Origin: Thermomicrobiales bacterium
Lineage (GTDB): Bacteria > Chloroflexota > Chloroflexia > Thermomicrobiales > UBA6265
DNA: 64,000 nucleotides
NCBI GenBank assembly: GCA_023957115.1
Contig: JAMLHN010000003.1
Coordinates: forward strand, 927-64,926
Direction: 5' to 3'
Under the pieces are notes generated by a model. That model did no database searches. It had not been told where the DNA came from and saw only the letters and a program-made list of their open reading frames with translations. The translations under genes and the position numbers were made by a program. This document shows positions 20,395-63,165 of this stretch, one piece after another. Numbering within the stretch: the first letter of the stretch is position 1; each line of letters starts with the position of its first letter.

Positions 20395-22419
20395 ATGGCA
20401 ATAATGGTTCAGGATCTCCTGCGCGCGCGCAGTGGGGCTCCCCGGCGTCCCGTGCCTCGTATCGAGCGGCTCCACGTGGCGACGGCGATGGCGGTCTTCT
20501 TCTCGATCGTGCTGATCGACGCCATGCTGCGCCCATTGGCCGGTTTCGATCTTCCGCTCATGACCCGTATCCAGACAGCAAATGCTCCCGGGCTCGAATC
20601 GTATTTCGAGACGATTGGCTATCTGACCGGCTCGGTGGGGGCGATCACGCTCTGGGCGCTGGCAACCGTGGCACTGGCGACCCGGCGAATCTGGTCGGCG
20701 GCGCTGGCAATGGCGCTCATGCCCATTGGCGGGGTGTTCAATACCCTCATCGGCGAAGTGCTGGTCGTGCGCACCCGCCCGCACTTGGACGAGCTGCAGC
20801 GCACCAGTCTCAACTTCGAAGAGCGGTCGTTTCCAAGCGGTCATGTCGAAGGAGCGATGCTCTTCTATGGCCTGATCTTCCTGCTGGCCCGCCGGATCGA
20901 ATATCGCGGGCTGCGGCTTGCGGTGCAGGCCGGTGCGGTGATCCTCGTGGCATCCACGTCGGTCAGCCGGATCTGGCAGGGAGCGCATTGGCCGAGTGAC
21001 GTCCTCGGGGCGTTGTTGCTTGGTGGCGTGCTGGCGATCGCGCTGGACGAGATCGCCCGCCGGAGCCGTTCGCTCGATGGGCTGCCGTTCATCAGGGCGC
21101 AATGGCTCGAGCACGACGAGGCCGCGCCGCATGCGCACGCGTTGACGAGCCTGGTGATCTTCCAGGGCGAGACGGTGGCCAAGGTCTATGCACCCGGGCT
21201 TCTTCCCCGCGCGCTCTACTGGCTCGCGTTTCAGGCCCCGTTTCCCTATGTTGCCAACACGCACGCGCTTTGGGCCGCGGCCCACCGCCGCAATCTGGCC
21301 GGTATGTTGACTGAATACTGGTACGGGCAGCGTCTGACCGCTGGCGCGCTCGGTGTGGACCGGATCGACGGGCGCCTGGCGCTGGTCAGCGAATTCGTGG
21401 AGGGAGAAGCCGCTTCCGACCGTGCGGCAGCCAAGCGTTTTTTGACCGATCTGCGCGCCAGGTTCGAGGAAGCGGGACTGCCGACCTGGCAGATCGACCC
21501 TCGCCAGCCGCGTGCGGTCGATAACGTGCTGCAGATTGCGGATGGCTCTTTCCGCATCGTCGATCTGGAGTCGGGACTGGTGTCGCCGCTGGCGTCGCGC
21601 TCGACCTGGGGCCACGCTATTCGCCGGCAGATGGTGCCGTTCTGCGATGACCTGTTCTTCGATGTCCTCCGGGACTATCTGGCGCGGGAAGAAGCGGCCA
21701 TGACGGTCGCCAGGGGCGAAACCTGGGTGGCCGAGCTGCACGCGCTGATCGACGACGCGGAAATGCAGGTCGCCAAATGGCACGCTTCCGAGCCCCGTCT
21801 CTGGCATCGTCTTTTCGCCTTCGTGGCGGGAGGGTTTGGGATTCGGTCCGGCGTCCGCACGGGGCGGGCGCTCTGGACCGGCGGTAATGACAAGGCGATG
21901 AGCTGGGTCGATGCCGGCGTGACGCGCTGGGAAACCGAAGGGCGGCTCTCGGAGACCGAGACGGTGCTGTTGCGCGAGCAGATCGCGCAGCCCGATTTCC
22001 AGCAGATGATGCCGTATCTGGGCGGTCACATCCTGCTGAGCATTCCCCTCCGTTTCCCCTTCGGCTGCATCATCCGCCCGATGCTGGTGGCCGGCGCGCT
22101 GGGGTGGTCGACCACGATGCTTCTGCGCCGGAAGATCGACCGATCCGCATGGAAACGCGCGGCGGGCATTCATTCGCCGTTGGTTATGATCGTTGCCGCG
22201 ATTCCAGGGGCGGGATCGGTGGCCTATCTGGCCTCGGAGCCGATTCGCCGGAACCGGTTGATGTTGCGCGTGATGACCGATGCGATGCTCTTCAAGTTGC
22301 CCAAGGGGATGTATCTCAAGTCCGGCGCGCGTAAATGGATTGCGCGACCGGCCCGGACCGAGCCGTTGACGCTCGTCCCGGTCCAGCAGACAACCGACCC
22401 GAAGCCGCTCGCTGCATAA
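20395..22419 (+). CDS. Multidomain membrane protein: N-terminal PAP2 phosphatase, central kinase-like domain, C-terminal TM region
   Basis: PAP2 motifs: [23 protein letters not shown]. The central segment has VAKVY, SEFVEGE and [18 protein letters not shown], resembling Kdo/RIO/APH-type kinase folds (inference). C-terminal hydrophobic segments. Confidence 0.7.
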
Positions 22420-22538
22420 GTCTTCTGCCGACTGGCGCCGGCTTCGACTTCCTCCTCACTCGGCATCGAGACCCGATGGAATGGGACCTCTCATCCTACT
22501 CCCCATTGGGTCTCGATGCCTTGGGCTACGATCAGTTT

Positions 22539-22638
22539 GGGAGCTGGGAGCTGGGAGCTGGGAGCTGGGAGCTGGGAGCTGGGAGCTGGGAGCTGGGAGC
22601 TGGGAGCTGGGAGCTGGGCTTTCCCAACTCCCAACTCC
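22539..22638. repeat. Perfect (GGGAGCT)x11 array followed by an inverted (CCCAACT)x2 arm
   Basis: 22539-22615 is an uninterrupted period-7 array. cccaactcccaactcc (22623-22638) is the near-complement of the array. It lies between convergent genes and abuts the TAG stop of the SDR gene at 22640. Confidence 0.95.
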
Positions 22639-34204: not shown

Positions 34205-37200
34205 TTACTGCGTGTCGAGCACCGTTATCGAGAGATAGGCGGGTGCGCCGCCTTCACGGCTGCCGAGCGCAACCCCCTCACCGCTCACGATGATGGTCAC
34301 CGGTCCATCGGCTGCGATCCAGCCCGTCAGGTCGATCGGCACAGCTACGCCAGCGTCGATCCAGGCGCCCGAGGCTCCCGCACCACCGGGTGCTGAGTTA
34401 AGCGTCAACGAGTATTCGTCGATACCGACTCCATTGGCGACCGCGATGTTGACGGAGCCGCTTCCGCTCACACCGGTGAGATAGAGCACCGCGCTCTGCA
34501 CCTGTCCGTATCCGATCTGGTCCGGATAGAAGGTGATGTAGGCAATGCCGCCCGTTTCGCCGCCGACCGGCAACGAACCGACCTGCTCGCCCGGTTGGAC
34601 CGCGGATGGGTCGACCGATGACACGCTGGTGTCGGACGCGGCCCAGACCTCGAAGGTTCGCTCGATGACCGGCGGAACCGTTGGCTCACCGAGTGGGGTC
34701 GGATCGCAGGCATCGTCGACGCCGTCGCCGTCTGAGTCGTATCCACTGTCGGCGACACCCGGGCAGCTATCGAGCGCATCCTCGACGCCATCCTGATCCG
34801 CATCCGGCACCGGTGTTTCCGTCGGCGGCGCTGGGGTTTCGGTCGGCGGCACGGGAGTCTCCGTCGGCGGAACCGGGGTTTCTGTCGCTGGGACCGGGGT
34901 CTCGGTCGAAGGCGCCACGGTCTCCGCCGGAATCTCGGTTGGCGGCGCCGGAGTCTCGGTTGCGACAGGCTCGGTGGGTTCGGCCGCTTCCGTTGGCTCG
35001 ATCGAGACCGTTGCCGCCGGTAGCTCTCCGACCTCCGTTTCGACGACCGGGCTACCCGGCTCTTCGGACGGCGTGGCGGTCATCGTCGGCGTGATGGTCG
35101 CCAGCGAGTCCGTGGAGCTAACCGGCTCTTCGCCACCCACTGCGCCATTGACCACGCTTGCGGAGACGAGACCCAGGAACTGCCCGGCGACCCAGCCATT
35201 AGGTTGCCCGGTGACCTGGAGCTGGTACCACTGATAGCCATTGGCCGAAACCGGACCGTTGAGCACAGTACCGGTGGTGCCGGTCGGCAACATCCCGAGG
35301 ATCGAGCCCGATGTGCTCGCCGAGCTACGGAAGTTGAGCGGTCCGTCATCGACGCGCACGACATCGCCCGAGATGTACACCCCAGCGGCCCGGGTGGCCG
35401 TGCTGGAGGCAACCGCCGTTCGCGATGGCGTCCGGGTCACCGTGGCTACGCCGGTTGGGGTCGACGCGGTTCCTCCGGTCGGCGAGATGTACGACATGGC
35501 GATCCAGCCGATGATCTGGCCGCTCTGGACGCGCACCCAGACATGACCATTTGCCGAGCGCGAGTCGCCCAGCGAGGTCATCAGCGTTCCGGTCGGCAAC
35601 GTTCCCAGAATCGTGCCCGAGGTCGATGGCGTCTGCCGGATATTGACGCGCGTATTGGTGCGATAGACGCGGCCCGGCACGGTTGTGCTATTGGCACTCG
35701 GGGTGGGGGTGCGGGTGCTGGTAACCGATGCAACCCCGGTTGGAGTAGAGGCTGTGCCGCCGGTTGCGGTCACATAGGACACCGAGAGCCAGCCAATCGA
35801 GGCGCCTGCTTGCACGCGCAACCAGAGATGCCCGTTGGCCGAGGACGTCTGACCCAGCGAGGTGACAAGCGTGCCGGACGGCAGGGTGCGAATGATGGAT
35901 CCAGCGGTCGACGGCGATTGTCGCAGGTTGACGCCAACCCGGACGCGGTAGACCGTTCCAGCGACCGTCGTGCCGCTACCCGGCGAGCTCGTGGTTGGGG
36001 TGCGAGTGGCGGTTGCGGTCCGTGTCGGCGTCGCGGCAGAGGCGGTCTTGGTCAGGTACATCGTGGCGGCCCAGCCAGTGGCTCCGGTGCTGGTGCGCAC
36101 GTTCGACCATTGCAGCCCATCGACCGTGCGCCCGCTGCCGATGATCGTTCCCGTCGTTCCCACCGGCAGCGAGCCGATGATGCCGCCGGAGTAGCCGGGA
36201 GCCGAGCGGAAATTGATCAACGTCGTGACGCGGAACGAATCTCCGAGATTGAGAGCACCGCCGGGGACGACGCTCCCGTTGGGGGTTGCGGTGCGGGTCG
36301 GGGTGCGCGTTGCCGTCGGGCTCCCGCTGACGGTGCCACCCTGGCGCATGTACTGCGCGGCAACCCAGCCGGTCGTTCCGTCGCCGAGCCGAATCTGATA
36401 CCAGTCGAAGTTGTCGATGCGGTTCGGACCCTGCAGCACAACGCCGCTGGTGTTTATGACCAGGAGGCGGATGATGGAGGTGGAGAGTCCTGGGGCGGAC
36501 CGCATATTGAGCGTGTCGGAATCGACGCTGATGGTCGAGCCGATCGCGAAGTTCACGGTTGGGGCGGGTGTCGGCGTCGGGAGCGGAGCCGGAGTCCAGT
36601 CCGAGCCGCCGGGGGTGGTGCCGATCAGAGAGGTCGCATGCTGCACGAACATCTGCATATACGAGTTCGTGGTCGTTCCGGTCACATCGGTGCCATATCC
36701 GAAATAGGCCCCGGCGACCTGGGTCCAGTTATTCGAATTGATGGCGATCGACTTGTTCACCATCTCGGTGCCGCCGGCCAGCACCTGGTTGTAGGCGTTG
36801 TCGCACATCCAGGACACGGACTTCATATATTCGGGAACCGCCGAGGTGGCGCCGATTTGCATGAGTCCGAAGTAGTAGCCGGAGCTGGTCAACGGGGACC
36901 GGGCATTGAGCATGCCGCGCGATTCGACCCACATGATGGCCTTGAGCACATTGGCGGGCACGCCGGTCGAATTGGAGACCGAGAGAATCTCGCTATTCCA
37001 GCGATGGAGATCGGCATAGGTCCAGGTCATCCCGGCCGAGCTGCCGGTATTGCATGGGTAGGGAGTCGCGGTTCGGGTCGGCGTACGCGTGGGGGTCGCT
37101 GTTTGCGCGGCGACCTCGGCCGTGCCGGGAAGGGAGAAGAGCGTGAGTCCGGCGATGATGACGATAGCGATCGTCAGGAAACGTGGATGGGATCGGAATC

Positions 37201-37282
37201 GTCCCGGTTTTCCAGTGTTGCGGTCGAGCGACCGCCGCATCCCGCTGGAAGCAGCGCTCCCATTGGTATTCGACAAAGCCAC
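34205..37282 (-). CDS. Large secreted cell-wall protein: SLT lytic-transglycosylase domain, 5 SH3b domains, Pro/Thr/Glu-rich spacer, TSP3-like Asp-rich repeat, C-terminal beta-rich domain
   Basis: The start is uncertain; GTG 37282 has GGGGGG upstream, and TTG 37324 and ATG 37240 are alternatives. SLT block: ANVLKAIMWVESRG...YFGLMQI. Five LN[MF]RS.P...G.....W..V....G..GWV units. (TETPVPP)n spacer. DADQDGVEDALDSCPGVADSGYDSDGDGVDDACD repeat. Confidence 0.8.
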   Translation of the reverse strand: MALSNTNGSAASSGMRRSLDRNTGKPGRFRSHPRFLTIAIVIIAGLTLFSLPGTAEVAAQTATPTRTPTRTATPYPCNTGSSAGMTWTYADLHRWNSEILSVSNSTGVPANVLKAIMWVESRGMLNARSPLTSSGYYFGLMQIGATSAVPEYMKSVSWMCDNAYNQVLAGGTEMVNKSIAINSNNWTQVAGAYFGYGTDVTGTTTNSYMQMFVQHATSLIGTTPGGSDWTPAPLPTPTPAPTVNFAIGSTISVDSDTLNMRSAPGLSTSIIRLLVINTSGVVLQGPNRIDNFDWYQIRLGDGTTGWVAAQYMRQGGTVSGSPTATRTPTRTATPNGSVVPGGALNLGDSFRVTTLINFRSAPGYSGGIIGSLPVGTTGTIIGSGRTVDGLQWSNVRTSTGATGWAATMYLTKTASAATPTRTATATRTPTTSSPGSGTTVAGTVYRVRVGVNLRQSPSTAGSIIRTLPSGTLVTSLGQTSSANGHLWLRVQAGASIGWLSVSYVTATGGTASTPTGVASVTSTRTPTPSANSTTVPGRVYRTNTRVNIRQTPSTSGTILGTLPTGTLMTSLGDSRSANGHVWVRVQSGQIIGWIAMSYISPTGGTASTPTGVATVTRTPSRTAVASSTATRAAGVYISGDVVRVDDGPLNFRSSASTSGSILGMLPTGTTGTVLNGPVSANGYQWYQLQVTGQPNGWVAGQFLGLVSASVVNGAVGGEEPVSSTDSLATITPTMTATPSEEPGSPVVETEVGELPAATVSIEPTEAAEPTEPVATETPAPPTEIPAETVAPSTETPVPATETPVPPTETPVPPTETPAPPTETPVPDADQDGVEDALDSCPGVADSGYDSDGDGVDDACDPTPLGEPTVPPVIERTFEVWAASDTSVSSVDPSAVQPGEQVGSLPVGGETGGIAYITFYPDQIGYGQVQSAVLYLTGVSGSGSVNIAVANGVGIDEYSLTLNSAPGGAGASGAWIDAGVAVPIDLTGWIAADGPVTIIVSGEGVALGSREGGAPAYLSITVLDTQ

Positions 37283-37543
37283 GAATTCCCCCCAAGCTCG
37301 GCAGTCTGCCCCTGCAAGGACCAAACTGCAGAAGTTGTCCCTGACGAAATCTACGCTGGCTCGTGGCCGCCCGGATCTCTCAGAGACGAATGCTGTGCCC
37401 TGTTGTCACCATCTGATCGGCGCGAACGAATGCTCGAACGATGGGGCGTGACAGGGAACAGGTTCATCGTACCTGACAATAAGTCGCCAAAGCAACCCGA
37501 ACTGTGCGGAGAATGTACACAAAACGATCCCGAATGACGAAAA

Positions 37544-37620
37544 TGTCCGGTGTCCGGTGTCCGGTGTCCGGTGTCCGGTGTCCGGTGTCCGGTGTCCGGT
37601 GTCCGGTGTCCGGTGTCCGG
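37544..37620. repeat. Perfect (TGTCCGG)x11 heptanucleotide array
   Basis: Read directly: 77 bp, period 7, uninterrupted. Confidence 0.95.
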
Positions 37621-37696
37621 AGCGATCGGCGTGCCAAGGCCCGCGCCGAAAATGTATCGAAGGGTCCCATCCCGGGACTCTTCGCTTTACGTTTCT

Positions 37697-37744
37697 CAGG
37701 ACTCAGGACTCAGGACTCAGGACTCAGGACTCAGGACTCAGGAC
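37697..37744. repeat. Perfect (CAGGACT) array, about 7 copies, abutting the fabF stop codon
   Basis: Read directly: 48 bp, period 7. The next three bases (37745-37747, cta) are the TAG stop of fabF. Confidence 0.95.
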
Positions 37745-38980
37745 CTACTCGTATCGCTTGAACAGGGCAACCGCGTTTTGACCGCCGAACCCGAATCCGT
37801 TGACCAGCGCCACATCGACTGGCATCTTGCGCGCAACGTTGGGGACGTAGTCCAGATCGCACTTCGGATCCGGGTCGGTCAGGTTGATCGTCGGCGGCAC
37901 GATGTTGTCGCGGATGGCATAGACACAGGCGATGGCAGAAACACCGCCAGCCGCGCCAAGAAGGTGTCCAACCATCGACTTGTTGGCCGAAGCGGCTAGC
38001 TTGTAGGCATGATCGCCAAAGGCCGTTTTGATGGCATCCGTTTCCGCGATATCGCCAACGTTGGTTGCGGTGGCATGCGCGGCGATGTAGTCGATATCCT
38101 GCGGTTGCAACCCGGACCGCTCGACCGCCAGCGACATCGCCCGGGCGGCATGCTTGCCATTGGGATCGGGCGCGGTGATATGGAACGCGTCGGAGGTGAA
38201 CGCCCCGCCGGTCAGCTCGGCGATGATGTTCGCGCCACGGGCGAGCGCATGCTCTTCCGATTCGACGATCAGGACGCCGCATCCCTCTGAGAAAACGAAG
38301 CCGTCCCGACCGAGATCGAACGGGCGGCTGGCGCCCGCGGGATCGTGGTTGCGCTTGGAAAGGGCACCCATATTGGCCATCGCGGTGATCGACGTGCGGC
38401 GCAGACCCGACTCGGCCCCGCCCGCGATGATGATGTCGGCTTCGTCCCGCTGAATCATCTGCGCTGCCTGGACGAACGCCTGCACACCGGAGGCGCACGC
38501 CGCCGACGACGTCACGGTCGGACCGTGAATCCCGAACGCCATCGAAACCTGGCAGCTGGCCATATTGGGAGCGAAGAGCGCGATGGTCAGCGGGTGCACC
38601 CATTTGGGGCCTTTTTCGACCATAGCTTCGACATTGGCTTCCATGATGGGGATACCGCCCCCACCACTGTTCATGATGACGCCGACCCGCTCGCTCTGCT
38701 CAGGATCGACGGTATACCCCGCATCGTTGAGCGCTTCGGCAGCGGATGCGACCGAAAAATGGGAGAATCGGTCCATCCGCTTCGCCAGCTTCGCATCCAT
38801 GTGGTCCTTTGGATCGAAGTTACGCACTTCGCCGCCGATGCGAACCTCGAGATCGGAAACGTCGAAATTCTCTATCTCGGCGATGCCCGACTTGCCGGCG
38901 AGCATCCCCTCCCAAAGCGTCGACGCGCCGATACCGAGTGGGGAAACAGCTCCTGCGCCGGTCACAACCACTCGCTTCAC
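37745..38980 (-). CDS. fabF: Beta-ketoacyl-ACP synthase II
   Basis: Start at GTG 38980 (VKRVVVTGAGAVSPLG), with GAGGAG 7 nt upstream. Active-site contexts SSAACASG, AHATATNVGD and KSMVGHLLGAAG form the Cys-His-His triad. Confidence 0.9.
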   Translation of the reverse strand: MKRVVVTGAGAVSPLGIGASTLWEGMLAGKSGIAEIENFDVSDLEVRIGGEVRNFDPKDHMDAKLAKRMDRFSHFSVASAAEALNDAGYTVDPEQSERVGVIMNSGGGGIPIMEANVEAMVEKGPKWVHPLTIALFAPNMASCQVSMAFGIHGPTVTSSAACASGVQAFVQAAQMIQRDEADIIIAGGAESGLRRTSITAMANMGALSKRNHDPAGASRPFDLGRDGFVFSEGCGVLIVESEEHALARGANIIAELTGGAFTSDAFHITAPDPNGKHAARAMSLAVERSGLQPQDIDYIAAHATATNVGDIAETDAIKTAFGDHAYKLAASANKSMVGHLLGAAGGVSAIACVYAIRDNIVPPTINLTDPDPKCDLDYVPNVARKMPVDVALVNGFGFGGQNAVALFKRYE

Positions 38981-39154
38981 AGGTAACTCCTCGATTGGGA
39001 ACCCGGACATTGGGCGAGAGCCGTTCGGTGGCCCGGGTTGGGGTCAGCAAAATTGACGATCGAGGGCGGAGCCGCCGATCAACGTGCTAGTGTACGGGAA
39101 ATCCGGCCCAACTCGTAGGAGTAGCCTCGACAAAGGATAGGGTGCACCGATTCC

Positions 39155-39598
39155 ATGATCCCACGTGAGCAACATCCGCGACCGCGGCTGACCCGTATCG
39201 CCTGGACCGATCTGGGCGGCGTCTGGGACTTCGCGTACGACGATGACGATCGCGGACGACGAACGCTGGAATGAGCGCATCGATGTCTTCGACCGTGCGA
39301 TCGCGGTTCCCTTTCCGCCGGAGTCTCCGCTGAGCGGGATCAACGACACCGCGCCCGCACGGAAGCGGCATGGATCGCACAGCTCACGGACCTGGTGAAC
39401 GCCGTGTAGCAGATGCCATCGATCGTGGGCATCTGCTACACACAGCTCACGGACACGGAACGGGAGATCAATGGCTTGCTCACGGCTGACCGAACCCCGA
39501 AAGCCTATCCCGCCCTCATTCGCAGTCTCTTGCAACAACCCGCGAGATCGATGCCGGCGGAAACGACCTTTGGCAGTCTGACCAGCTCGGTCGGGTAG
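39155..39598 (+). pseudogene. Remnant of a GH2-family glycoside hydrolase (N-terminal and C-terminal stubs only, with frameshifts)
   Basis: MIPREQHPRPRLTRIAWTDLGGVWDFAYDDDD, then in another frame ERWNERIDVFDRAIAVPFPPESPLSGINDT, then [27 protein letters not shown]. These are conserved GH2 termini as I recall the family. The roughly 450-aa catalytic middle is absent. Confidence 0.55.
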
Positions 39599-39611
39599 CG
39601 CTTTCGGGTCG

Positions 39612-40595
39612 TCAGCGTCCGCTCAGCGTTGGAATCCCGAGTCCCAATCCTGCCATCGGGATGGTTTGCGCGCCGGGTGCAATGCGCTTGATGAGCCCCG
39701 CAAGCACGGTGCCCGGTCCAATCTCGAAGAAGGTCTTGACTCCGGCATCGGTCATGGTCTGGATCGAGCCGGTCCAGTCGACCGGACGCTCCATCTGCAA
39801 ATCGAGCTCCTCGTAAAGACCCCCGGTGGTGTAGATCGGCTGGGCCGACGTGTTGCCGATCACCATACCGCTCGGTTTCTCCGGGAACTCGGGCAGCGAG
39901 AGCGCCGCATCACGCAGCAGCTTCTGGAATTCCGTATTGGCGCTCGCCATTAGTGGCGAATGCGACGCGATCGAGACATTCAGACGCGCCACCCGGCGCG
40001 CGTTCTTCCCTTGGCGAGTTCCATGGTTGCTTCGAGGCCACGAACATCGCCCGAGATCACGGTCTGGCCCGGGCAATTGCGATTGGCGGGAACGACGACG
40101 CCATCCGCCGAGGCGGTACGGCAAACGTCGGCAATTGCCTCATCGTCGAGTCCAAGCACCGCAGCCATACCGCCGGGATTAACCTCACCGGCTTGTTTCA
40201 TCAGCGGCCGCGCTCGCGAACGAGCGACAGCGCGGTTGAAACCGCATGATCCCCGCCGCGACCAACGCGGAGAACTCACCGAGCGAATGACCGGCGACAT
40301 AATCGGGCGCCAGGGGAACGTCGGCCTCCTGGGCGTTCTCGTTGAGCGCAGCCAGCGCGGCAATGCTGACTGCCAGGATGGCCGGTTGGGCATTGACCGT
40401 GTCTTCCAACGCTTCGGCCGGGCCGTTCTGGATCAGCTCGGTCAGCCCAAAGCCGAGGGTGTCATCGGCCAGCGCCATCATCGCGCGGGCCATCTCGCTG
40501 GCGTCCAGCAACGGTCCGGCCATCCCGACGAACTGGCTTCCCTGTCCCGGGAAAACGAACGCGTACGGTGGGGCTGGAATGGTTGGTTCGGTCAC
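39612..40595 (-). pseudogene. fabD: Malonyl-CoA:ACP transacylase split across three frames by three apparent 1-nt deletions
   Basis: GTG 40595: FVFPGQGSQ...AGHSLGEFSALVAAG, then a shift near 40246; AVSTALSLVRERGR, then a shift near 40205; LMKQAGEVNPGGMAAVLGL...ANRNCPGQTVISG...MELAK, then a shift near 40009; GKNARRVARLNVSIASHSPLM...FFEIGPG. All FabD blocks are present and collinear. Confidence 0.8.
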
Positions 40596-40712
40596 GAATC
40601 GGATCCTCTCGCAAAGGCGGGTTCCCAGTCAGCTGCTCCAATTATTGTCGCAGCAGGCGGACGAGTAGGCGGGGCCGGAGCCCGGAGAAGCCCCCTCAGC
40701 TACGACTGGGTC

Positions 40713-41504
40713 TTACGAATGCAAACGTCGCAGGAACGCCTGCAGGCGTTCGCTTTCGGGGTGCTCCAGGACCTGGCTGGGTGGACCCTGCTCGACCACG
40801 ACGCCGCCGTCCATGAAGACGATACGGTCGGCCACGTCGCGGGCGAAGCCCATTTCGTGCGTTACGACGATCATCGTCACCCCGTGCGACTGGGCCAGAT
40901 CGGTCATCACCTGCAGCACTTCACCGACCAGCTCCGGGTCGAGCGCCGAGGTGACCTCGTCGAAGAGGATCACCTTCGGTTCCATCGCCAGCGCGCGGGC
41001 AATTGCCACCCGTTGTTGCTGGCCACCGGAAAGCTGGGACGGATAGTTGTCCGCTTTGTCCGCCAGGCCGACCCGGGCCAGCAAGCGCCGGGCATTTTCC
41101 TCCGCTTCGGCTTTGTTGACCTTGCGCACCTTCATCGGACCGAACGTGACATTGCGCAGGGCGGTCATATGCGGAAAGAGGTTGAACTGCTGGAAGACCA
41201 TCGCAGTCTCGGCGCGGATCTTGGCCACCTCTTTCTCGGGAGCCGGTTTCAATTGGCCGTTCTGCTCGCGATAGCCAACGAGCTGACCGTCGACATAGAT
41301 CCGGCCGTCCTGGTAGTTCTCGAGAAAATTGACGCAACGGAGCATGGTGGTCTTGCCCGAGCCACTCGGACCGATGACGCAGACGACCTCTCCGGGCGCA
41401 ATATCGAGATCGACCCCCTTCAACACCTGAAGCTCGCCGTAGTGCTTGTGCAGGTTCCTGATCGAAACCATGGCATTCGGATTCGGTGCGAGATTCTGGC
41501 TCAT
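40713..41504 (-). CDS. Polar amino acid ABC transporter ATP-binding protein (GlnQ-like)
   Basis: [24 protein letters not shown] and [13 protein letters not shown] motifs. Confidence 0.9.
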
Positions 41505-42190
41505 CGGGCGACCCCAAAGCGATACCGCTGGGCAACGAGTGCGCCAAGACGGGAAATCGTAAAGCAGATAACGAAGTAGATGGCCGCGGCGGCAATGTAG
41601 AAGGGAAGGACATCGCCCGTCCGCTCGACGATCTTGCGGGTCGCGAAGAGGAGCTCACTCATGCTGAGCAGTGAGGCGAGCGATGTTCCCTTCACCAGCT
41701 CGGCAGCGGTATTGGTCCAGGGAGGAATGATGACCGGCATCGATTGGGGCAGCGTGATCGAGAACAACCGTTGCCAGAAGGTAAGCCCCAACGCCTTGCC
41801 GGCGTCGGATTGCCCCTTGGGGACCGATGCTAGCGCGCCGCGGACCACCTCTCCTACCTGCGCCGCGCCGAACAGGGTGAGCCCGATTGCCGCCGCCTGA
41901 AACCGCCCGACGTTCGTGGGGATGTGCACGCCGAGGATGTCGATGTTGACCGCCGGCAGGATGTAATAGATCAGAAAGAGCACGACCAGGATCGGCAAAC
42001 CGCGGATGACATCGACATAGAGCCGCAGCAGCGAGCGAACGACCCGGTTGCCGTAGAACAGTCCCACACCGACGAACAGTCCGATCAGCGAGCTGGCCAC
42101 GATCGCGACGGCCGACAGCTGGAGCGTGAGCTTCAGACCGAGCCAGATGAGATGACGGTTGTCCCAGACCTCGTTCATGCCACCGTCCAT
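41501..42190 (-). CDS. Amino acid ABC transporter permease (His/Glu/Gln/Arg/opine family)
   Basis: 229 aa with the EAA-like loop (AGKALGLTFWQRLFSITLPQ). 4-nt overlap with the ATPase gene. Confidence 0.85.
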   Translation of the reverse strand: MDGGMNEVWDNRHLIWLGLKLTLQLSAVAIVASSLIGLFVGVGLFYGNRVVRSLLRLYVDVIRGLPILVVLFLIYYILPAVNIDILGVHIPTNVGRFQAAAIGLTLFGAAQVGEVVRGALASVPKGQSDAGKALGLTFWQRLFSITLPQSMPVIIPPWTNTAAELVKGTSLASLLSMSELLFATRKIVERTGDVLPFYIAAAAIYFVICFTISRLGALVAQRYRFGVAR

Positions 42191-42873
42191 TTGATGCGCC
42201 GTTCGATGAGGCGCAGTCCGATGGCGATCGCGTAACAGGTGAGCAGATAGATGACCCCTGCTGTCGCCCAGGCTTCGATATAGCGAAAATAGTCGGTACT
42301 GATCTTGCGCGCGGCCCAGGTCAGCTCAGGCGCCGCGATGGCCACCGCAATCGAGGTGTCCTTGAAGAGCCCGATGAAGGTGTTACCCAACGACGGCAAC
42401 ACCGTGCGGAGCATGATCGGCAGGGTAATGGAGACGGCCGTCTGGGTGCGGCTCAGTCCCAGCGAACGGCCCGCTTCGAGATAGCGTTTGCCAACCGAAA
42501 CGATACCGGCGGAAAAGATCTCCGCCAGATAGGCAGCCGCATAGATGGCTAGGGCCACGATGAACGTTGTTTCCGCATCGGGCAGGATCTTCAAGACCCA
42601 TTCCTGACCGGTGCTGCGGCGCGGAAAGACTTGCGGAAGCCCGAAGTAGAGGAGTGATACGATCAACAGCAGCGGAATATTGCGGATGAGCTCGACGTAC
42701 GCGGTCACCACCCAGCGAAGCGGGCGCGGACCGTATTGCCGCGCAAATGCCAGCAGAAGACCGAGCACCGTCCCGATGATCAGCCCAAGAATGGCCATCT
42801 TCAACCCGAGCAGAAGCCCGTCGATGAAGAGTTCCTTGTTGTTGGTGATGTATTCCCAACGGAGCTTGTACAT
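42175..42873 (-). CDS. Amino acid ABC transporter permease
   Basis: I trimmed the ORF to ATG 42873 (MYKLRWEYITNNKELF...). EAGRSLGLSRTQTAVSITLP loop. Confidence 0.85.
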   Translation of the reverse strand: MYKLRWEYITNNKELFIDGLLLGLKMAILGLIIGTVLGLLLAFARQYGPRPLRWVVTAYVELIRNIPLLLIVSLLYFGLPQVFPRRSTGQEWVLKILPDAETTFIVALAIYAAAYLAEIFSAGIVSVGKRYLEAGRSLGLSRTQTAVSITLPIMLRTVLPSLGNTFIGLFKDTSIAVAIAAPELTWAARKISTDYFRYIEAWATAGVIYLLTCYAIAIGLRLIERRIKWTVA

Positions 42874-43072
42874 CGATTCCCGCGAGCCGATCTGAGTGCG
42901 TGCAGTATGGCGTATCCGCCAGTTCGACTGCACACTGTAGCCCACACCGGAACGCCGCCCGGAACGCGCGCCGTCCAAGTATCGAGCGGAATCGATATGT
43001 GAGGGAGGTCCAGTAGCCAGCGAGAGTAGACGTCAAGCGCCTCTTTCCCTGGACACTGGCCTCGAGCAGGTG

Positions 43073-43852: not shown

Positions 43853-43930
43853 TTGTTTCGATACCCTCCTTGGGCGTTATTGGTTCGATTTGGCCCCGTG
43901 AAGGCGCTTTACGCTCTTCTCAGGACACAG

Positions 43931-44017
43931 GACACAGGACACAGGACACAGGACACAGGACACAGGACACAGGACACAGGACACAGGACACAGGACACAG
44001 GACACAGGACACAGGAC
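43931..44017. repeat. Perfect (CAGGACA) array, about 12.4 copies
   Basis: Read directly: 87 bp, period 7. Lies between the ymdB start and the stop of the CUT1 permease gene. Confidence 0.95.
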
Positions 44018-44028
44018 ACGTCGTTCGC

Positions 44029-51981: not shown

Positions 51982-52986
51982 TCAGCCGTGGGAACCGAGA
52001 CGGTCGAGGCTCTCGGTAGCTTGCTGGGCGACCGATTGCACCACCGCCGCGGCTGGAAGAACCTCGTGCATCACGCCCACGCTCTGACCGGCATAGAGCA
52101 CCATGCTTTCCAGATCGCCAGTCGTGCGGGCGCCGGGAAAATCGTCGTGGTACCGCATGATTGGGGCGCCTTTGCTGGTGTGCCCCAGGACATCGCCTTC
52201 GCCGGGCCCGCGACCCGGTTCCGGCCGCCCGGCCTCTTCCCAGAGCTGAAGTGATCGGTTGTGCAGGGTGCGCAGGGGGGTATTCGGCGGCCAACCGCCG
52301 CGGAAGAGCGTGGTGTGGATCGTATCCCCGGCGCCGGCCTCGACCATCCATCCTTGGTACTCGGGGTGCGCGTCGGCTTCCTCGGTCAGCAGGAACCGGG
52401 TGCCCATCCAGACCCCCGAGGCGCCCAGACAGAGCGCGGCGGCCAGCCCACGACCGTCGCCGATTCCTCCAGCAGCCAGCACCGGGGTCGGGCCAACCGC
52501 GTCGACGACTTCGGGAAGGATTGCCATGATGCTGGTCTGCCCTTCGACATGGCCGGATGCCTCGTACCCTTGCACCACAATGGCATCTGCGCCGGCGTGC
52601 TTTGCGCCGATGGCCCCCGCAGTCGATCCCACCATGTGCACCAGCAGCGCACCGGCAGCGTGGATCTGCTCGACCCAGGGCCCGGGATCGCCCCAGGAGA
52701 GCGAGATGATCGGGACTCCTTCTTCCAGGGCAATGGCCAGCCGCTCGACCGGATCCCAGTGCAGCACGAGATTGATACCAAAGGGACGATCGGTGAGCTC
52801 CCTGGTCTGCCGAATGACCTCACGTGCTTCTGAGGGCGACCGCCAGGTGAGTGACAGCATGCCAAGCGCGCCGGCATTGCTGACGGCGGCGGCCAGCTGT
52901 GGGGTGGTGGCCGATCCGATTGGAGCCTGAACGATGGGGAGGTCGATATTGGCCAAGCTGGTGAAATCAGTGGCGAGCGATGTCAT
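51982..52986 (-). CDS. Nitronate monooxygenase family FMN oxidoreductase (NMO/2-nitropropane dioxygenase; FabK-like fold)
   Basis: Start at ATG 52986 (MTSLATDFTSLANIDLPIVQAPIGS). IVVQGYEASGHVEG and AAGGIGDGRG blocks are typical of the NMO/FabK family. Confidence 0.85.
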   Translation of the reverse strand: MTSLATDFTSLANIDLPIVQAPIGSATTPQLAAAVSNAGALGMLSLTWRSPSEAREVIRQTRELTDRPFGINLVLHWDPVERLAIALEEGVPIISLSWGDPGPWVEQIHAAGALLVHMVGSTAGAIGAKHAGADAIVVQGYEASGHVEGQTSIMAILPEVVDAVGPTPVLAAGGIGDGRGLAAALCLGASGVWMGTRFLLTEEADAHPEYQGWMVEAGAGDTIHTTLFRGGWPPNTPLRTLHNRSLQLWEEAGRPEPGRGPGEGDVLGHTSKGAPIMRYHDDFPGARTTGDLESMVLYAGQSVGVMHEVLPAAAVVQSVAQQATESLDRLGSHG

Positions 52987-53404
52987 GACGGTGATTTCCT
53001 CGATGATCGTGATCGAGCAGCCAGCGGATGCGCGAAAACGAAAGAACGTAATTGAGGGCGGCGAAGGTCCAGAGCGTTTCGGCAGCCCAGCGGCTACCCG
53101 TAACCCAAAGTCCATATCCGGCCAGCAGAAAAAGCCCGATCTCGAGGATCAGGCGCACCGGTCCCGACGTTGGGATGACACCCGGTTTGGCTGCTGGTGG
53201 CATACCGGGGGTGCGAAAAAGGCCCCATATGAGCATAGCGCCAAGTGCAAAAACGATAGCGAATATCCAGCGCGTGACGCCGTCACCCACCTGCCAGCCG
53301 ATAATCGCAAACGACGCCCACATCGCCAGCTCCAGCAGGAACATGACGACATCCGGGAAACGAATCGGTTGTCGGGTCGTGTCTTCGTCGGGATTGGTGC
53401 TCAA
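52967..53404 (-). CDS. DUF2568 (YrdB-like) small membrane protein
   Basis: FLLELAMWASFAIIGW...IFAIVFALGAMLIWGLF..P......RLILEIGLFLLAGYGLW fits the four-TM DUF2568 pattern. Confidence 0.6.
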   Translation of the reverse strand: MSTNPDEDTTRQPIRFPDVVMFLLELAMWASFAIIGWQVGDGVTRWIFAIVFALGAMLIWGLFRTPGMPPAAKPGVIPTSGPVRLILEIGLFLLAGYGLWVTGSRWAAETLWTFAALNYVLSFSRIRWLLDHDHRGNHRHDIARH

Positions 53405-53871
53405 AGCGTCTTGGCGGCGAGCCCGGCGGTGACGATGTCGGCGAGATGGTCGGAGACGTGGTTGCCGAAGACCGTCACGATCTTTTCGAGCGTCTGCGTC
53501 CCTGCCTCTGGATGCTGGACCGTCTGCTGCCAGGCATCGCCGGGCAGATTGCGGAGAACGGAGAGATTGACCGAACGGAGCGCGGCCAGCGCATCGAGCT
53601 GCAGATCGTCGGGTACCTTGTCGTACGAGATCCTGGCTTCATAGAGATCTGGATCGAAGGGGGCAAGCTGGCCGCCTGGATTGGCGATCGCAACGCGCAT
53701 GCGGGCCGAGAAGATCAGCTCCGTTTCCAGCAGGTGCTTCAGAATTTGCCGCGCGCTCCAACCCCCGTCGATCGGCTCGTCTCGCCGCGCGGCCGGAATC
53801 TGACGATAGACCATGACGAATTCGGTCATGGCATTGGTCCATTCGGCCAGCTGCGCGCCATGACTGCTCAT
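53401..53871 (-). CDS. DinB-family protein (DinB_2)
   Basis: WSARQILKHLLETELIFSARMR and FGNHVSDHLADI His-containing helices. ATGA overlaps with both neighbouring genes. Confidence 0.65.
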   Translation of the reverse strand: MSSHGAQLAEWTNAMTEFVMVYRQIPAARRDEPIDGGWSARQILKHLLETELIFSARMRVAIANPGGQLAPFDPDLYEARISYDKVPDDLQLDALAALRSVNLSVLRNLPGDAWQQTVQHPEAGTQTLEKIVTVFGNHVSDHLADIVTAGLAAKTL

Positions 53872-55277
53872 TCGAGATCCTCGCTTGTCTGTTGTGCGAA
53901 TTCCTCGGGAGCACGCTTGATGATCAATGCGGCGTTCTGACCTCCAAGTCCGAATCCATGCTTGGCCATATGGTCGAATGCATGTGGGCGCGGCTCGCCA
54001 TGGACCACATCGAGGGCGATGTCGGGGTCGGGATTCTTGTAATTGGCGGTTGGTGGGATGACCTGCTCGGCCATCGAGAGGACGCCCATGGCGGTTTCGA
54101 TGGCGCCGGCTCCGCCCATACAGTGTCCAATGTTCCCTTTGACCGACATGACGGGGATGGACGACGTGCGCTCCCCATAGATCTGATGAATCGCTCGCGC
54201 TTCGGCCACGTCCCCGGCTGGAGTCGAGGCTGCATGAGCCTGAATGTGACCGATCTGATCCGGGTTAACCCCGGCATCGGCCAGGGCGCCCGCAATGGCA
54301 CGGGCGGCCCCGGTGCCATCGGGCTGCGGGGCAATTGGATGGTAGGCGTCATTGCTGGAGGCGAATCCCACGATCTCGGCAAAGACGCGGGCGCCCCGTG
54401 CCATGGCGAAGTCGTAATCTTCGAGCACCAGTGCTCCGGCGCCTTCGCCCAGGGCGAACCCGGCGCGCGTGGCATCGAAGGGACGCAACGCGGACTCGGG
54501 ATGTTCGTTGGAGTCGGTCACCAGGGCGCGCATGGCCGAGAAGCCCGCGACCCCCATTGGGTGGACGGTCGATTCCGTCGCCCCTGCCACCATCAGTGGG
54601 GCGATGCCAGCCTGGATGACGTGGAAGGCCTCACCGATTGCCTGGGTTCCGGTCGCGCACGCCGTCGAGACGGTGTTGCTGGGACCGCCCATTCCGAACC
54701 GCCATTGCACGGTGTAGGACGCCATGTTGAGCGGAAACTTCACATGGAGATGGGGCGAGAGCCGGTCATGTCCTCGCGTATTGAAGGTGTCGTAGGCGGG
54801 GAGGAGATCATCGTAGCTTCCGCCGACGCAGGTGCCGATGACCGATCCACCTGGGAGGAGATCCATCAGTGGCGTCCCCTCGGCATCGATCAGCCCAGCC
54901 GAGATCATCGCGGCGCCGGTCGCCTCCAGCAGCCAGAGACTGAACTGCGAGGTGTTGCGGGCCGTTTTCGGATCCAGGAATCGGTTCGGGAGGTTGTCCA
55001 TGTCCAGATCGCCACGGACCTGGCAGGCGTAGTTGCCGTCCTGGAGATAGGGAATGCGCTTGATGCCGCTCTTCCCATCGAGGATATTGCCCCACGCTTC
55101 TTTGGCGGTCAGGCCGACGGCGCAAACCGCACCCACTCCGGTGACCACCACCCGCCGGCGGGTGCGCGGGCGTTGTCCGCGGAGCCCGCTGCCACAGGCG
55201 CTGCAGAACTGCTGCGTCTCGGAAACCGAGACGCCACAGATTGGACACGAAGTCGACGAAGAGGCAGCGAGGGTCAT
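53868..55277 (-). CDS. Beta-ketoacyl synthase (KAS I/II-type, Cys-His-His) with an N-terminal zinc-ribbon extension
   Basis: ATG 55277, with AGGAA upstream. N-terminus MTLAASSSTSCPICGVSVSETQQFCSACGSGL (CxxC...CxxC), then RRVVVTGVGAVCAVG. Active-site contexts STACATG, AHAASTPAGD and GNIGHCMGGAG. Confidence 0.85.
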   Translation of the reverse strand: MTLAASSSTSCPICGVSVSETQQFCSACGSGLRGQRPRTRRRVVVTGVGAVCAVGLTAKEAWGNILDGKSGIKRIPYLQDGNYACQVRGDLDMDNLPNRFLDPKTARNTSQFSLWLLEATGAAMISAGLIDAEGTPLMDLLPGGSVIGTCVGGSYDDLLPAYDTFNTRGHDRLSPHLHVKFPLNMASYTVQWRFGMGGPSNTVSTACATGTQAIGEAFHVIQAGIAPLMVAGATESTVHPMGVAGFSAMRALVTDSNEHPESALRPFDATRAGFALGEGAGALVLEDYDFAMARGARVFAEIVGFASSNDAYHPIAPQPDGTGAARAIAGALADAGVNPDQIGHIQAHAASTPAGDVAEARAIHQIYGERTSSIPVMSVKGNIGHCMGGAGAIETAMGVLSMAEQVIPPTANYKNPDPDIALDVVHGEPRPHAFDHMAKHGFGLGGQNAALIIKRAPEEFAQQTSEDLE

Positions 55278-55806
55278 GCAGAGTTCCTGAACGATGCGCG
55301 GACACGAGACGATAAATGGCCAAAGCCGCCGGTGAGCGAGTGTAGATCGAAGACCGGCATTGAAAAATCCAGCCAAGTATAGCGGTCTGCTCTGAACGGA
55401 CGAGCGCCCGGCGCGGCTATCAGCCTGCGAAACCGGGCGCTCGATCGTGTCATGTTCGCTGCCGAGGAGTTCGACTCATGGTCGCGAACAGAGATTGCCA
55501 TGAGACGGTGGGGTTTTCTGGACGGGTTGCCCCGGTTCGAAGACCGGTCAACCGTACTGGGGAGTGTAAGAGGATGTTAGAAGTCGATCGGGTGGCTACG
55601 CCCGGTCGTCGACATGCCTCCTGGTGCTCAATTGGGTTCCCCCTTTCGTTGCAAGCACCCTGGTTGACCCCGAGTTTCCCCGGGTGCCCGGCAAGATGAA
55701 CGACGCATCGCTGCAACTGAAATTGCGCCGTTCACTCCAGTAAACGCGGGAGCCTGGAAAAAGGTTTCATGGCGTACGTACGGCTGGGGCGGAACGAGTA
55801 GGCGGG

Positions 55807-55872
55807 ACCGGAGTCCGGAGGCCGGAGAAGAACGACTCGAACCGCGTGCCGTAGCTTCCTCCGGGCTCCGGC
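55807..55872. repeat. Small inverted-heptamer hairpin: (CCGGAGN)x3 ... (NCTCCGG)x2
   Basis: accggagtccggaggccggagaag ... cttcctccgggctccgg forms 6+7 bp helices with single-base bulges. The left arm plus adjacent core (gtccggaggccggagaagaacgac) matches 4211-4234 at 22/24 positions. Confidence 0.7.
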
Positions 55873-55992
55873 AACTCATACGAAATCCGCGTGATTGCTT
55901 GGGGATACCTGGTATGGGGTAGCCGCCGGCACCGGGCCAGCGGCGACACGACACGGGGGTAGACATCCTTGTGTCTTTACCCGGATTCCGTA

Positions 55993-56247
55993 TCAGTTGT
56001 CGGCGAGGATGACGCGCTCACCGTCCAGACCGTGCAGTGCGGAACCGAGCTCGTACGCTTCGTCTCGGCTCATCAGGATGCGGATACTGGGCGCGCCGTC
56101 GGCTGGTCCGAGGTCGATCTGAATCTCGCTATTGGGCAACGATTTGACCACCGCGGCCCCGACGATACGCACGGTTTCATCTCCATCGAAAAGCTGAAAC
56201 TTCACACTGGTACCCGCCTGCTCTTCTGGCTGTCGAACGATGGCCAA
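55993..56247 (-). CDS. Hypothetical small protein (70-84 aa; start uncertain)
   Basis: TTG at 56247 lacks an RBS, and an internal GTG (VKFQLFDGDETVRIVG...) is an alternative start. Composition is coding-like. No family recognised. Confidence 0.35.
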   Translation of the reverse strand: MAIVRQPEEQAGTSVKFQLFDGDETVRIVGAAVVKSLPNSEIQIDLGPADGAPSIRILMSRDEAYELGSALHGLDGERVILADN

Positions 56248-59055: not shown

Positions 59056-59598
59056 CTAAAGCTGACCCACGATCTCGTCGCGCTTGCGGCAGAGCTCTTC
59101 GACCGTGATGTGCCCCGATCGGAACAGATCCGCGACCGCCCAGAGCCGTGCCGACGCTTCCGAAAGCGCGGTCAGCTTCTTGCGGCGATTGCCTGCCCGC
59201 CGAACCGTCATCTCTCCAGCAATCGAAAGCGCGGTGATCGCATCGAAAGCGACATCCTTGCTGACCGGCGGCGCTTCATACGCCAGCGGGAGCTGCTGAT
59301 AGCCGTTGACATCGGCGTCGATCGCTTCCATGAGCCGGCGGACCGACGCGCTCAGGTGCGATTCAAAGGCGTTCAATGCCGCCTTGTGATGCGCGGCTGG
59401 CAACTGCTTCGACTCCAGAAACGCGGCGGGCGACTCCGGCTGTCCCTTCCAATCGGTGGAAAGGGCGATGTCGTCCAGAAATGCCTTGTCCGAGGGACAT
59501 CCCGCCCACTGGGCGAGCAATACGTCTTCAACTTTCGGTGGTGCAAGCCGGCCGAGCGCGCGAATCGATCGCGACCGTGTCCGGGGCGCCTCATCCAT
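59056..59598 (-). CDS. Hypothetical protein (180 aa, predicted helical)
   Basis: I trimmed the ORF to ATG 59598 (MDEAPRTRSRS...), with AAGGAAG upstream. No family recognised. Confidence 0.45.
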   Translation of the reverse strand: MDEAPRTRSRSIRALGRLAPPKVEDVLLAQWAGCPSDKAFLDDIALSTDWKGQPESPAAFLESKQLPAAHHKAALNAFESHLSASVRRLMEAIDADVNGYQQLPLAYEAPPVSKDVAFDAITALSIAGEMTVRRAGNRRKKLTALSEASARLWAVADLFRSGHITVEELCRKRDEIVGQL

Positions 59599-59778
59599 CT
59601 TCTCTTCCTTCGAGCGGGGGTAGAGGGATGGTAGCCGAAAGCGCTCGTACGTACAAGGATCGGAAACCGCGTTATGTTCTGAGGATTCCCAAATTTCCGT
59701 ATCTTCTTGACAGAACCTCACGAGCGCCGCTGATTTTTCCGCAACGACGGGAGGAGCGAGGAGCTGGGATCTGGGAGC

Positions 59779-60790
59779 TAGAGCAAAGACCTAAAGGGTT
59801 GCCAATGTGGCACGATCGTGCCATGCTGTGGCCATGCCCCGTGCCTATTCGGTCGACCTCCGTGAACGGGTGATGGCAGCCGTGGCGGACGGCTGCTCCA
59901 TTGCTGAGGCGGCCCACCGGTTTTCCGTCAGGGTCGATGCGATCTATGACTGGCGGCGCCGACAGCAGACCACCGGGTCGCTGGCGCCGACGACCCACCA
60001 CTGCGGACGCCCTCGTCGCGTGAGCCCGGAGATGGATCGGGCACTGCAGGCGCAGATCGACGCGGAGCCCGATGCTACCCTGACCGAATTGCAGGCGTGG
60101 CTGGCCACGGAGCATGGGCTCGTCGTCGGTCGTGGCACGGTCATTCGGGCCGTGGCGCGACTGGATCGTCCCCGAAAAGAGTCTGATCGCCACCGAGCGC
60201 GATCCTGAGCAGCGGGCAGCGTGGCACCAGGACCAGGCGCGGTTGGTGGCCGACGATCTGGTCTTTCTGGACGAAACCAGTACCCAGATCACCCTGACCC
60301 GCCGCCATGGCCGAGCCCTACCGTGGGCACCGGCTGGTCGCGGCGGTTCCCCGCAACCACGGACGCAACGTCACCTGCCTGGCCGCGTTGCGCACAACCG
60401 GAGTGGGACCATCCCTGGTCTTCGAAGGTGCGCTCAATGGACCGGTCTTTGCCCAGTGGGTGCGCACGCAGTTGGTACCGACCTTGCGACCGGGTCAGAT
60501 CGTGATCCTGGACAACCTGAATGTGCATAAGGCTCCCGAGGCGCGGCGGGCCATTGAGGCCGCTGGGTGTCAGCTGCGCTTCCTGCCAGCCTATTCGCCG
60601 GACTTCAATCCGATCGAACTGGTCTTCAGCCGGCTCAAGACCCACCTGCGCACCATCGCCGCACGCACGGTCGATGCCTTGATGACGGCAATCGGGGATG
60701 GGCTCAATGCCGTCACCGCCACCGATGCCCGCAACTGCGTGCGCATGCTGGGTATTCCTAACCAGGGCGACCTTTTCGGTCTGCGCTCTA
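59779..60790 (+). mobile_element. IS630-family insertion sequence (about 1.0 kb) with TA target-site duplication in a CTAG site
   Basis: Imperfect terminal inverted repeats: ctagagcaaagacctaaagggttgcc at the left, versus the reverse complement of the right end, ctagagcgcagaccgaaaaggtcgcc. TA at 59779-59780 and 60789-60790. It encodes an IS630-type HTH plus DDE transposase. Confidence 0.8.
59834..60788 (+). pseudogene. IS630 transposase split over three frames (two +1 shifts at C-runs)
   Basis: MPRAYSVDLRERVMAAVADGCSIAEAAHRF...ARLDRP, shift near 60170; EKSLIATERDPEQRAAW...VFLDETSTQITLTRRHGRA, shift near 60317; YRGHRLVAAVPRNHGRNVTCLAAL...ILDNLNVHK...LPAYSPDFNPIELVFSRLK. No in-frame stop occurs before the right IS end. 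Confidence 0.75.
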
Positions 60791-60822
60791 GGAATTGGGT
60801 GTCGGGAGTTGGCCGGGCCTAC

Positions 60823-61329
60823 CTACTGATTGCCGGTGACCGGCTGCTGGCCGCTCCGTTCCAGAACCTCGAAGTCGTGGGGGAAGGCGAGTTCGGGGAG
60901 GGCATCGGCGGAAAACCAACCGAGCTCGGTCAGGTCGTCACCCGCGGTTGCGGCGCCGGAAACGATCGTACCCCTGTAGACGGCGAGGACGACGGTTTCC
61001 CCTGAAGATGAGAGCAGACCGAGCAATTCGCCCAGCTCGATCTGGAATCCCGTTTCCTCCAGCACTTCACGGACCGCCGCATCCTCGACCTTCTCGCCCC
61101 GCTCGACGAATCCCGCCGGAAAGCTCCACTTCCCCGCGGCGCGGGCGCCCGGTCCACGCCGCCCGAGCAGAACCTTGCCGTCCCGCTGAAGCACCACTGC
61201 CACCGCCAGCTTGGGATCGAGATAGGTGACCGCGCCACAGCGTTCGCAGACCGGACGCGGGCGGCCGTCGTGCGCTCGCACGACCGTTTCCCCTCCGCAT
61301 CGCTGGCAATAGAGCATCGTTCCATCCAT
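60823..61329 (-). CDS. NUDIX hydrolase with an N-terminal zinc ribbon
   Basis: C-terminal part of the 664-aa track ORF. YCQRCGG...CERCG zinc ribbon, then the Nudix box GKWSFPAGFVERGEKVEDAAVREVLEETG. The start is uncertain (ATG at 61317, 61329 or 61353). Confidence 0.8.
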   Translation of the reverse strand: MDGTMLYCQRCGGETVVRAHDGRPRPVCERCGAVTYLDPKLAVAVVLQRDGKVLLGRRGPGARAAGKWSFPAGFVERGEKVEDAAVREVLEETGFQIELGELLGLLSSSGETVVLAVYRGTIVSGAATAGDDLTELGWFSADALPELAFPHDFEVLERSGQQPVTGNQ

Positions 61330-62914: not shown

Positions 62915-62920
62915 CAATTT

Positions 62921-63011
62921 GGGAGCTGGGAGCTGGGAGCTGGGAGCTGGGAGCTGGGAGCTGGGAGCTGGGAGCTGGGAGCTGGGAGCTGGGAGCTGGG
63001 AGCTGGGAGCT
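62921..63011. repeat. Perfect (GGGAGCT)x13 heptanucleotide array
   Basis: Read directly: 91 bp starting 7 nt after the stop of the HTH gene. Same unit as the 22539 array. Confidence 0.95.
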
Positions 63012-63165
63012 GGGCGAACACCCGGCGGCCCGAGCGATGCGGAGGGCCCCTCACTCCTCGCCATTTGGGAGAAACCCTGTAGGTATACAGGGGTAATGAG
63101 CTCCTGACTTCAGTCTGGAGATAACTCTCCCCTTCGCTGCGCTTCCGTCGGGACGGCGGCTCGAT

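Follow-up and report, generated by a model that had tools for sequence, protein, structure and literature searches.

The gene fabD, which encodes malonyl-CoA:ACP transacylase, is interrupted by three 1-nt deletions in the deposited sequence of a Thermomicrobiales metagenome-assembled genome (MAG), where it occupies positions 39612-40595 on the minus strand of the 64,000-nt stretch of DNA that we analysed (the window). These frameshifts are confined to one assembly, and five others of the same species are intact at the sites that they cover. Local errors of assembly are accordingly their most likely source, rather than the death of the gene. The frameshifts are real in the deposited sequence and, most likely, are not features of the organism. 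Judging from sequence comparison, we hold it quite probable that fabD is intact and functional in the organism, and that the deletions, five accompanying missense changes and the changes in the adjoining spacer are local errors of a single assembly.

As assembled, fabD is 984 nt long and its start and end share a frame, but FabD can be read only by passing through frames 0, 2, 1 and 0 in succession, and the three deletions leave no uninterrupted reading frame. The list of open reading frames contains three overlapping pieces, 40185-40595, 39980-40393 and 39612-40124. The motifs GQGSQ and GHSLGE lie in frame 0, the catalytic-Arg segment ALSLVRERGR in frame 2, PGGMAAV and CPGQTVISG in frame 1, and SHSPLM in frame 0 again. 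The catalytic elements (the GQGSQ oxyanion region, the Ser of GHSLGE, the substrate Arg and the His of SHSPLM) are thus all present and collinear, split over the frames, which bears out an earlier note, made from the letters of the window, that had described three 1-nt deletions and collinear motifs spread over three frames. For the roles of these residues we rely on established knowledge of E. coli FabD, taking the Ser to be the nucleophile and the substrate Arg to be the equivalent of E. coli R117. When one base was restored at each of the three sites, a protein of 328 aa was obtained. It scored 295.7 bits on the NCBIfam equivalog TIGR00128 (cutoff 260.9), a score that applies to the restored protein. 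Its nearest full-length homologues, from Thermomicrobiales MAGs, are also 328 aa in length and 88-91% identical. GenBank annotates the gene as fragments, MCO5220443.1 (136 aa, N-terminal) and MCO5220442.1 (73 aa, middle; locus tag M9947_02540), and an exact look-up showed that each of these two frameshift products is recorded on one contig only, the 225,325-bp contig of this MAG.

The lesions were placed by alignment to the near-identical DNA of a sibling MAG, GCA_020432215.1 (contigs L001 and L002), and to seven orthologues of related species. At site 1 (40237..40238, minus strand) a C is absent, TTTC[C]AACC, in codon 120 (Pro), and the frame passes from 0 to 2; this site is ungapped in the sibling (L002), in three further contigs of the species (L053, L055 and L056) and in the seven orthologous sequences. 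At site 2 (40202..40203, minus strand) the missing base is a T, CGCT[T]GATG, in codon 132 (Leu), with a shift from frame 2 to 1; two homologous sequences, P0017 and P0122, read through here as ERGRLMKQ. At site 3 (40007..40008, minus strand) a G is absent, AAGG[G]GAAG, at codon 197, which returns the frame from 1 to 0. The runs of identical bases at the three sites are only 2, 2 and 4 nt long, respectively. The earlier proposal that one base at each of three sites would yield a full-length protein held in its outcome, but two of its three repairs were misplaced or of the wrong base: the G at 40246, directly after an ATG, is in fact a C at 40237/40238, 8 nt away, and the C at about 40205 is a T at 40202/40203. 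Only the third, a G at about 40009, agrees in base with the alignment, which puts it at 40007.

Short contigs of the same population are publicly available and made an independent check of the locus feasible. The same fabD locus was recovered from five further assemblies of the species, which are identical to one another and intact at all sites covered; the disruption was reproduced in none of the five. All eight sites at which the fabD of the window differs are covered by four of them, namely GCA_020432215.1, Logan SRR17907852 (L053, corresponding to window positions 38490-40332), ENA ERZ28655786 (L055, 39300-40336) and ENA ERZ27309182 (L056, 39376-40366). The fifth, P0017 (MCO5223698.1, a MAG protein with an accession near the MCO522044x.1 series of the present MAG), covers sites 2 and 3 only. 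The additional contigs of this population were reached through a small open reading frame in the spacer (39413-39598), as was ENA ERZ28655168 (L057, 38813-39595), which covers the spacer only. The same-species assemblies agree with one another at every position where the window differs, including 39188, 39257 and 39304 in the spacer; therefore, all 11 differences in fabD and the spacer are private to this contig. JGI metagenome contigs, scanned with exact 28-mers, yielded no sequence of this species, and a scan of genome contigs gave other species only, at 90% identity or less, which were used for synteny and dN/dS and not for the same-species comparison. A look-up of contigs encoding the FabF of the window gave no record. 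A literature search found no paper mentioning the accession of the sibling MAG.

The sibling has an irregularity of its own. Within the intact ABC transporter ATPase gene upstream of fabD (40713..41504, minus strand), which served as a control region and shows no window-private difference, the sibling carries at L002 2060-2180 (window 40838-40957) a 120-nt in-frame patch with 26 mismatches that resembles a paralogue (DVLDLLASLRRDG). The window agrees with the orthologues at these positions, where the sibling deviates, and the patch stems from recombination in the sibling or from a chimeric assembly of it, the window being unaffected.

All eight window-private differences of fabD fall in a patch of 319 nt (40003..40321, minus strand). 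Besides the three deletions, they consist of five substitution events on the minus strand: G92D at 40321, Q118R at 40243, D139V at 40181-40182 (AC>TT), A191T at 40027 and G199N at 40003-40004 (GG>AA). All five are non-synonymous, and in each case the residue of the window is absent from every relative retrieved; G92, Q118 and G199 are invariant across all of these relatives, whereas D139 and A191 are variable positions. The remark in the earlier note that the gene shows no other decay is incorrect, because these five private codon changes share the stretch with the deletions; three private changes in the fabD-fabF spacer, substitutions at 39188 and 39304 and a 2-nt deletion at 39257, add to them. 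The four indels of fabD and the spacer are all deletions in very short repeats (CC, TT, GGGG, and GA in GACGAGAC), and of the nine bases substituted, seven are, read on the plus strand, transitions between pyrimidines, among them a CC>TT tandem.

The 11 private events of fabD and the spacer form two clusters, 39188-39304 (three events) and 40003-40321 (eight events). Compared with the four other assemblies, the remaining 665 nt of fabD contain no private difference; there is none either in the 698 nt that separate the two clusters, or across about 4.56 kb of comparable flanks (38571-39187, 40322-42997 without the ATPase patch of the sibling, 59117-60087 and 60744-61163). In simulations, the probability of finding eight events inside 319 nt of the 984-nt gene was 0.002, and that of finding 8 of the 11 events inside 319 nt of the 4.1 kb compared was 2e-5. 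The dN/dS comparison with orthologues that the earlier note had asked for was run, and gave values of 0.03-0.08 between species for fabD. Relaxed selection spread over the whole gene, as expected of a pseudogene, was not seen, all eight differences lying in the 319 nt. Because the private changes are clustered, the dN/dS is 0.03-0.08 and the changes are all non-synonymous, slow neutral decay of a fabD pseudogene is ruled out, and the pattern points to a single local cause.

An intact fabF for beta-ketoacyl-ACP synthase II (37745..39010, minus strand; 421 aa, with ketoacyl-synt and Ketoacyl-synt_C domains) lies about 600 nt downstream of fabD, so that the association typical of type II fatty acid synthesis is present. 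The lack of fabG and acpP between the two genes had been regarded as an anomaly; it is the normal state of the clade, because in three related species (L004, L005 and L006) fabD is directly followed by fabF. The arrangement of fabD and fabF is therefore not the abnormality that it had been taken for. The spacer (39011..39611) does hold, on the plus strand, the glycosidase remnant that had been noticed there. It matches residues 31-91 and 545-582 of 7xyr_A, a GH2 beta-glucuronidase of 591 aa (E = 1.1e-14), and retains only the N-terminal 60 or so and the C-terminal 40 or so residues, with a weak match to Pfam Glyco_hydro_2_N. All five same-species assemblies with coverage of the spacer contain this remnant (L053, L054, L055, L056 and L057). 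The content of the spacer varies within the clade, from an Opp-type ABC cassette (L003) and a PALP-family gene (L048 and L049) to the remnant of about 600 nt in this species; the spacer is a variable insertion site. On the other side of fabF, a 1039-aa protein of secreted type (34205-37324, minus strand), with an SLT lytic transglycosylase domain, five SH3_3 repeats and TPTRTATP-like linkers, is conserved in all related loci.

The short-read contigs of the species end in or beside the fabD patch, at window positions 40216-40236 and 40332-40366. The sibling MAG breaks at 40217-40236 with an overlap of 20 nt between its contigs, and the contig of P0017 begins near 40216; L053, L055 and L056 end at 40332, 40336 and 40366, respectively, and L055 carries a divergent tail of 31 nt after 40336, a search with which gave no informative match. 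These contig ends in or near the patch mark a spot that is difficult to assemble. A hairpin or the GC content as the cause of the breaks was rejected, as the fold z-score was -0.66 and the GC content was unremarkable. The break of the sibling was also considered as a trace of a co-occurring frameshift allele; a variant at 40237, where the Pro codon has its third base, accounts for the 20-nt overlap better than the deletion does, and the overlap therefore provides no evidence for a frameshift allele in the sample of the sibling.

A second patch of private differences was found in an IS630-family transposase (59795..61002, plus strand), for which two contigs from different Logan runs, L051 (SRR17907852) and L052 (SRR23924734), show the same insertion with the same flanks. 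Private to the window are the shortening of an A7 run to A4 at 60174, a C>T with an inserted C at 60319-60321, and CC>C at 60743. The two Logan contigs agree with each other apart from 60088, where L051 alone has an additional substitution, and in 1.39 kb of flanks no difference between the window and these contigs was detected. Since the IS630 element, a repeat, and fabD, a conserved gene, both differ, this contig has at least two patches of private indels and substitutions. The transposase contains two frame switches on the same strand, and at least one of the boundaries between its open reading frames is probably the normal arrangement of the family: in both Logan contigs a slippery run, A-AAA-AAG (A7), lies between the HTH and the DDE parts, where the window has A4, and most homologues are annotated as a DDE-only open reading frame of about 200 aa. 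This arrangement suggests a two-ORF organisation with programmed frameshifting for the element.

Elsewhere in the window, a tandem duplication of 8 nt at 18843-18858 (GACTTCAT GACTTCAT) divides an arylsulfatase gene (18005-19785, minus strand) between two frames. Removal of one 8-nt copy gave an uninterrupted protein of 532 aa, for which no homologue from the same species was found, the best match being 76%. Six perfect (100%) tandem arrays of heptanucleotides, with 7-14 copies each, are present at 4357-4450, 22538-22618, 37544-37620, 37695-37744, 43921-44019 and 62920-63014, and all are intergenic; their units are GCTGCCT, TGGGAGC (twice), TGTCCGG, CTCAGGA and CAGGACA. Two of the arrays flank the end of fabF, and one lies just upstream of a YmdB-like gene. 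Similar short heptamers in tandem repetition are known from cyanobacteria. A second group of fatty-acid-like genes at 51985-55475 (minus strand), syntenic in the related contigs L047 and L048, encodes a beta-ketoacyl synthase, a DinB-family protein, a DUF2568 protein and a nitronate monooxygenase (FabK-like) protein; the stop-to-stop translation of the synthase has an upstream in-frame extension with a possible zinc ribbon (a weak Pfam match, below the cutoff). Three segments of about 0.9-1.1 kb each, 10900-11950, 19550-20460 and 55150-56010, showed no coding signal in any frame, no Rfam match at the gathering score and no tRNA.

Two related MAGs have an unusual fabD. In GCA_041390765.1 (L047), three 1-nt indels interrupt the gene, as in the window, and its only annotation is a fragment of 96 aa, whereas in its sibling GCA_041390825.1 (L048) it is intact and encodes 328 aa. 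Unlike those of the window, the indels of L047 are at codons 39, 61 and 219 (L048 positions 6115, 6183 and 6656) with signs -1, -1 and +1; the substitutions that go with them represent ordinary polymorphism and are for the most part synonymous; and indels are far more numerous at the locus, with 26 gap openings in 9.9 kb. The comparison of L047 with L048 revealed a dense indel patch at L047 2563-3267 and further indels in the SH3-repeat protein, and no indels in the nitronate monooxygenase gene, the SelA-like gene and fabF. In MFD05442.bin.2.324 (L007 and L008), one contig has a full fabD that is no longer next to fabF, and a second contig carries, by fabF, a near-identical duplicate of the 3' two-thirds of fabD (from about codon 123) with about 80 nt downstream. 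Either the locus has been rearranged with a segmental duplication, or the assembly is at fault.

Local consensus and indel errors are known in MAGs, as unpolished or mis-polished patches at repeats and in conserved genes of co-occurring strains. The differences described here are private, clustered, blind to coding constraint, and recur at another spot that is hard to assemble. We infer that the errors arose by bridging. The short-read graphs of the population would break inside fabD, possibly as a result of conserved sequence shared with co-occurring relatives, and IS630, being a repeat, would be the second difficult spot; the 225-kb contig probably bridged both with sequence of lower quality (a long-read gap fill, or an unpolished or mis-polished stretch), which would leave deletions in short runs and miscalls of the transition type. 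The suggestion of homopolymer consensus errors is thus upheld as far as error is preferred over biology, given five intact assemblies and frameshift products on one contig only, but not as regards homopolymers, the runs being of 2-4 nt. Several observations speak against an assembly error. The rest of the window is clean, and the six heptamer arrays are perfect; a survey of coding frames found no same-strand frame switch in the window other than those in the sulfatase, the IS element and fabD. For a contig assembled exclusively from short reads, three deletions would be errors of a very unusual kind. The private differences occur only where they would be neutral if fabD were dead (the spacer remnant, the IS element and fabD), and real mutations filtered by selection would look alike; and the sulfatase is broken by an 8-nt tandem duplication, which is not a typical base-calling error.

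Some of these points lend weight to the alternative that the inactivation is real, very recent and limited to one strain, a single clustered event (an error-prone repair patch or 'mutation shower') having struck fabD and the spacer while another acyltransferase elsewhere in the genome would supply malonyl transfer. The differences do stand in the deposited 225-kb contig and are annotated as fragments, and the private changes occur only in sequence that is neutral if fabD is dead. Strand-biased damage or repair could yield both the exclusively deletional indels of fabD and the spacer and the plus-strand pyrimidine transitions at seven of the nine bases. Other wrecked genes, the sulfatase with its 8-nt duplication and the GH2 remnant, exist in the genome, and the fabD of GCA_041390765.1, with a sibling in which it is intact, offers a parallel; but that parallel also resembles assembly noise, with its 26 gap openings in 9.9 kb and dense indel patch. 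Against a real inactivation stand the five other assemblies of the species, identical and intact at the sites covered, and the exclusion of gradual decay, since the other 665 nt of fabD are unchanged, as are the 698 nt from one cluster to the next. Over about 3.3 kb, the neighbouring genes show no synonymous change either. Clustered events would have to be invoked twice, once in fabD and the spacer and once in the IS element. FabD is normally essential, and no second fabD or acpP was found within the 64-kb window. We regard this alternative as unlikely, and its specific form, in which one burst of mutation over about 1.1 kb (the three -1 deletions of fabD, the 2-nt deletion of the spacer and strand-biased transitions with a CC>TT tandem) destroyed a conserved fabD in one strain, as a little less likely again. 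Such a burst, if true, would provide a 'mutation shower' observed in nature and would indicate that FabD is dispensable in Thermomicrobiales, with a strain living on another malonyl-CoA:ACP transacylase; and if reads confirmed the frameshifts, they would mean a very recent, clustered knockout of FabD, implying an alternative malonyl transferase.

We find it very improbable that the patch represents a second, decaying partial copy of fabD and the spacer from elsewhere in the genome, inserted by the assembler into the true locus or blended with it. The duplicated 3' two-thirds of fabD by fabF, next to a full copy elsewhere, in MFD05442.bin.2.324 provides a precedent, the contig breaks at 40216-40236 and 40332-40366 are what the boundaries of a repeat would give, and the tail of L055 diverges after 40336. 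However, the decayed allele is on no contig of any other assembly and its 73-aa and 136-aa products are on a single one, the L055 tail has no informative match, and only one allele is seen across five assemblies. That recoding or transcriptional slippage corrects the three shifts and the gene is expressed is barely conceivable, even though the shifts total -3 and the first and last segments are in the same frame. It was rated lowest because a slippery context is absent at all three sites: neither a slippery heptamer nor a long homopolymer occurs in TTTCAACC, CGCTGATG or AAGGGAAG. It would also require three successive +1 events, and the same-species and related sequences encode FabD in one frame, without a shift. 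With local assembly error as the preferred explanation, the case is a caution: when an essential gene is found disrupted in a MAG, independent assemblies should be compared before gene loss is inferred.

Compared with the FabD family (TIGR00128; Pfam PF00698, Acyl_transf_1), the restored protein matches in the length of its relatives, in its score above the cutoff and in its motifs, and has fabF as its neighbour as in related Thermomicrobiales; the assembled gene differs in that its frame is broken three times and at five positions, three of which are conserved, it has residues seen in no relative. The pattern of the differences is like that of consensus errors in MAGs, in that they belong to one assembly, lie in patches of about 100-650 nt with clean sequence in between, comprise deletions in short runs and transitions, and coincide with an IS element and with a gene in which short-read contigs break off. 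It is unlike such errors in that the runs affected in the window are of 2-4 nt, with no long homopolymers, and in the presence of tandem double substitutions (AC>TT and GG>AA).
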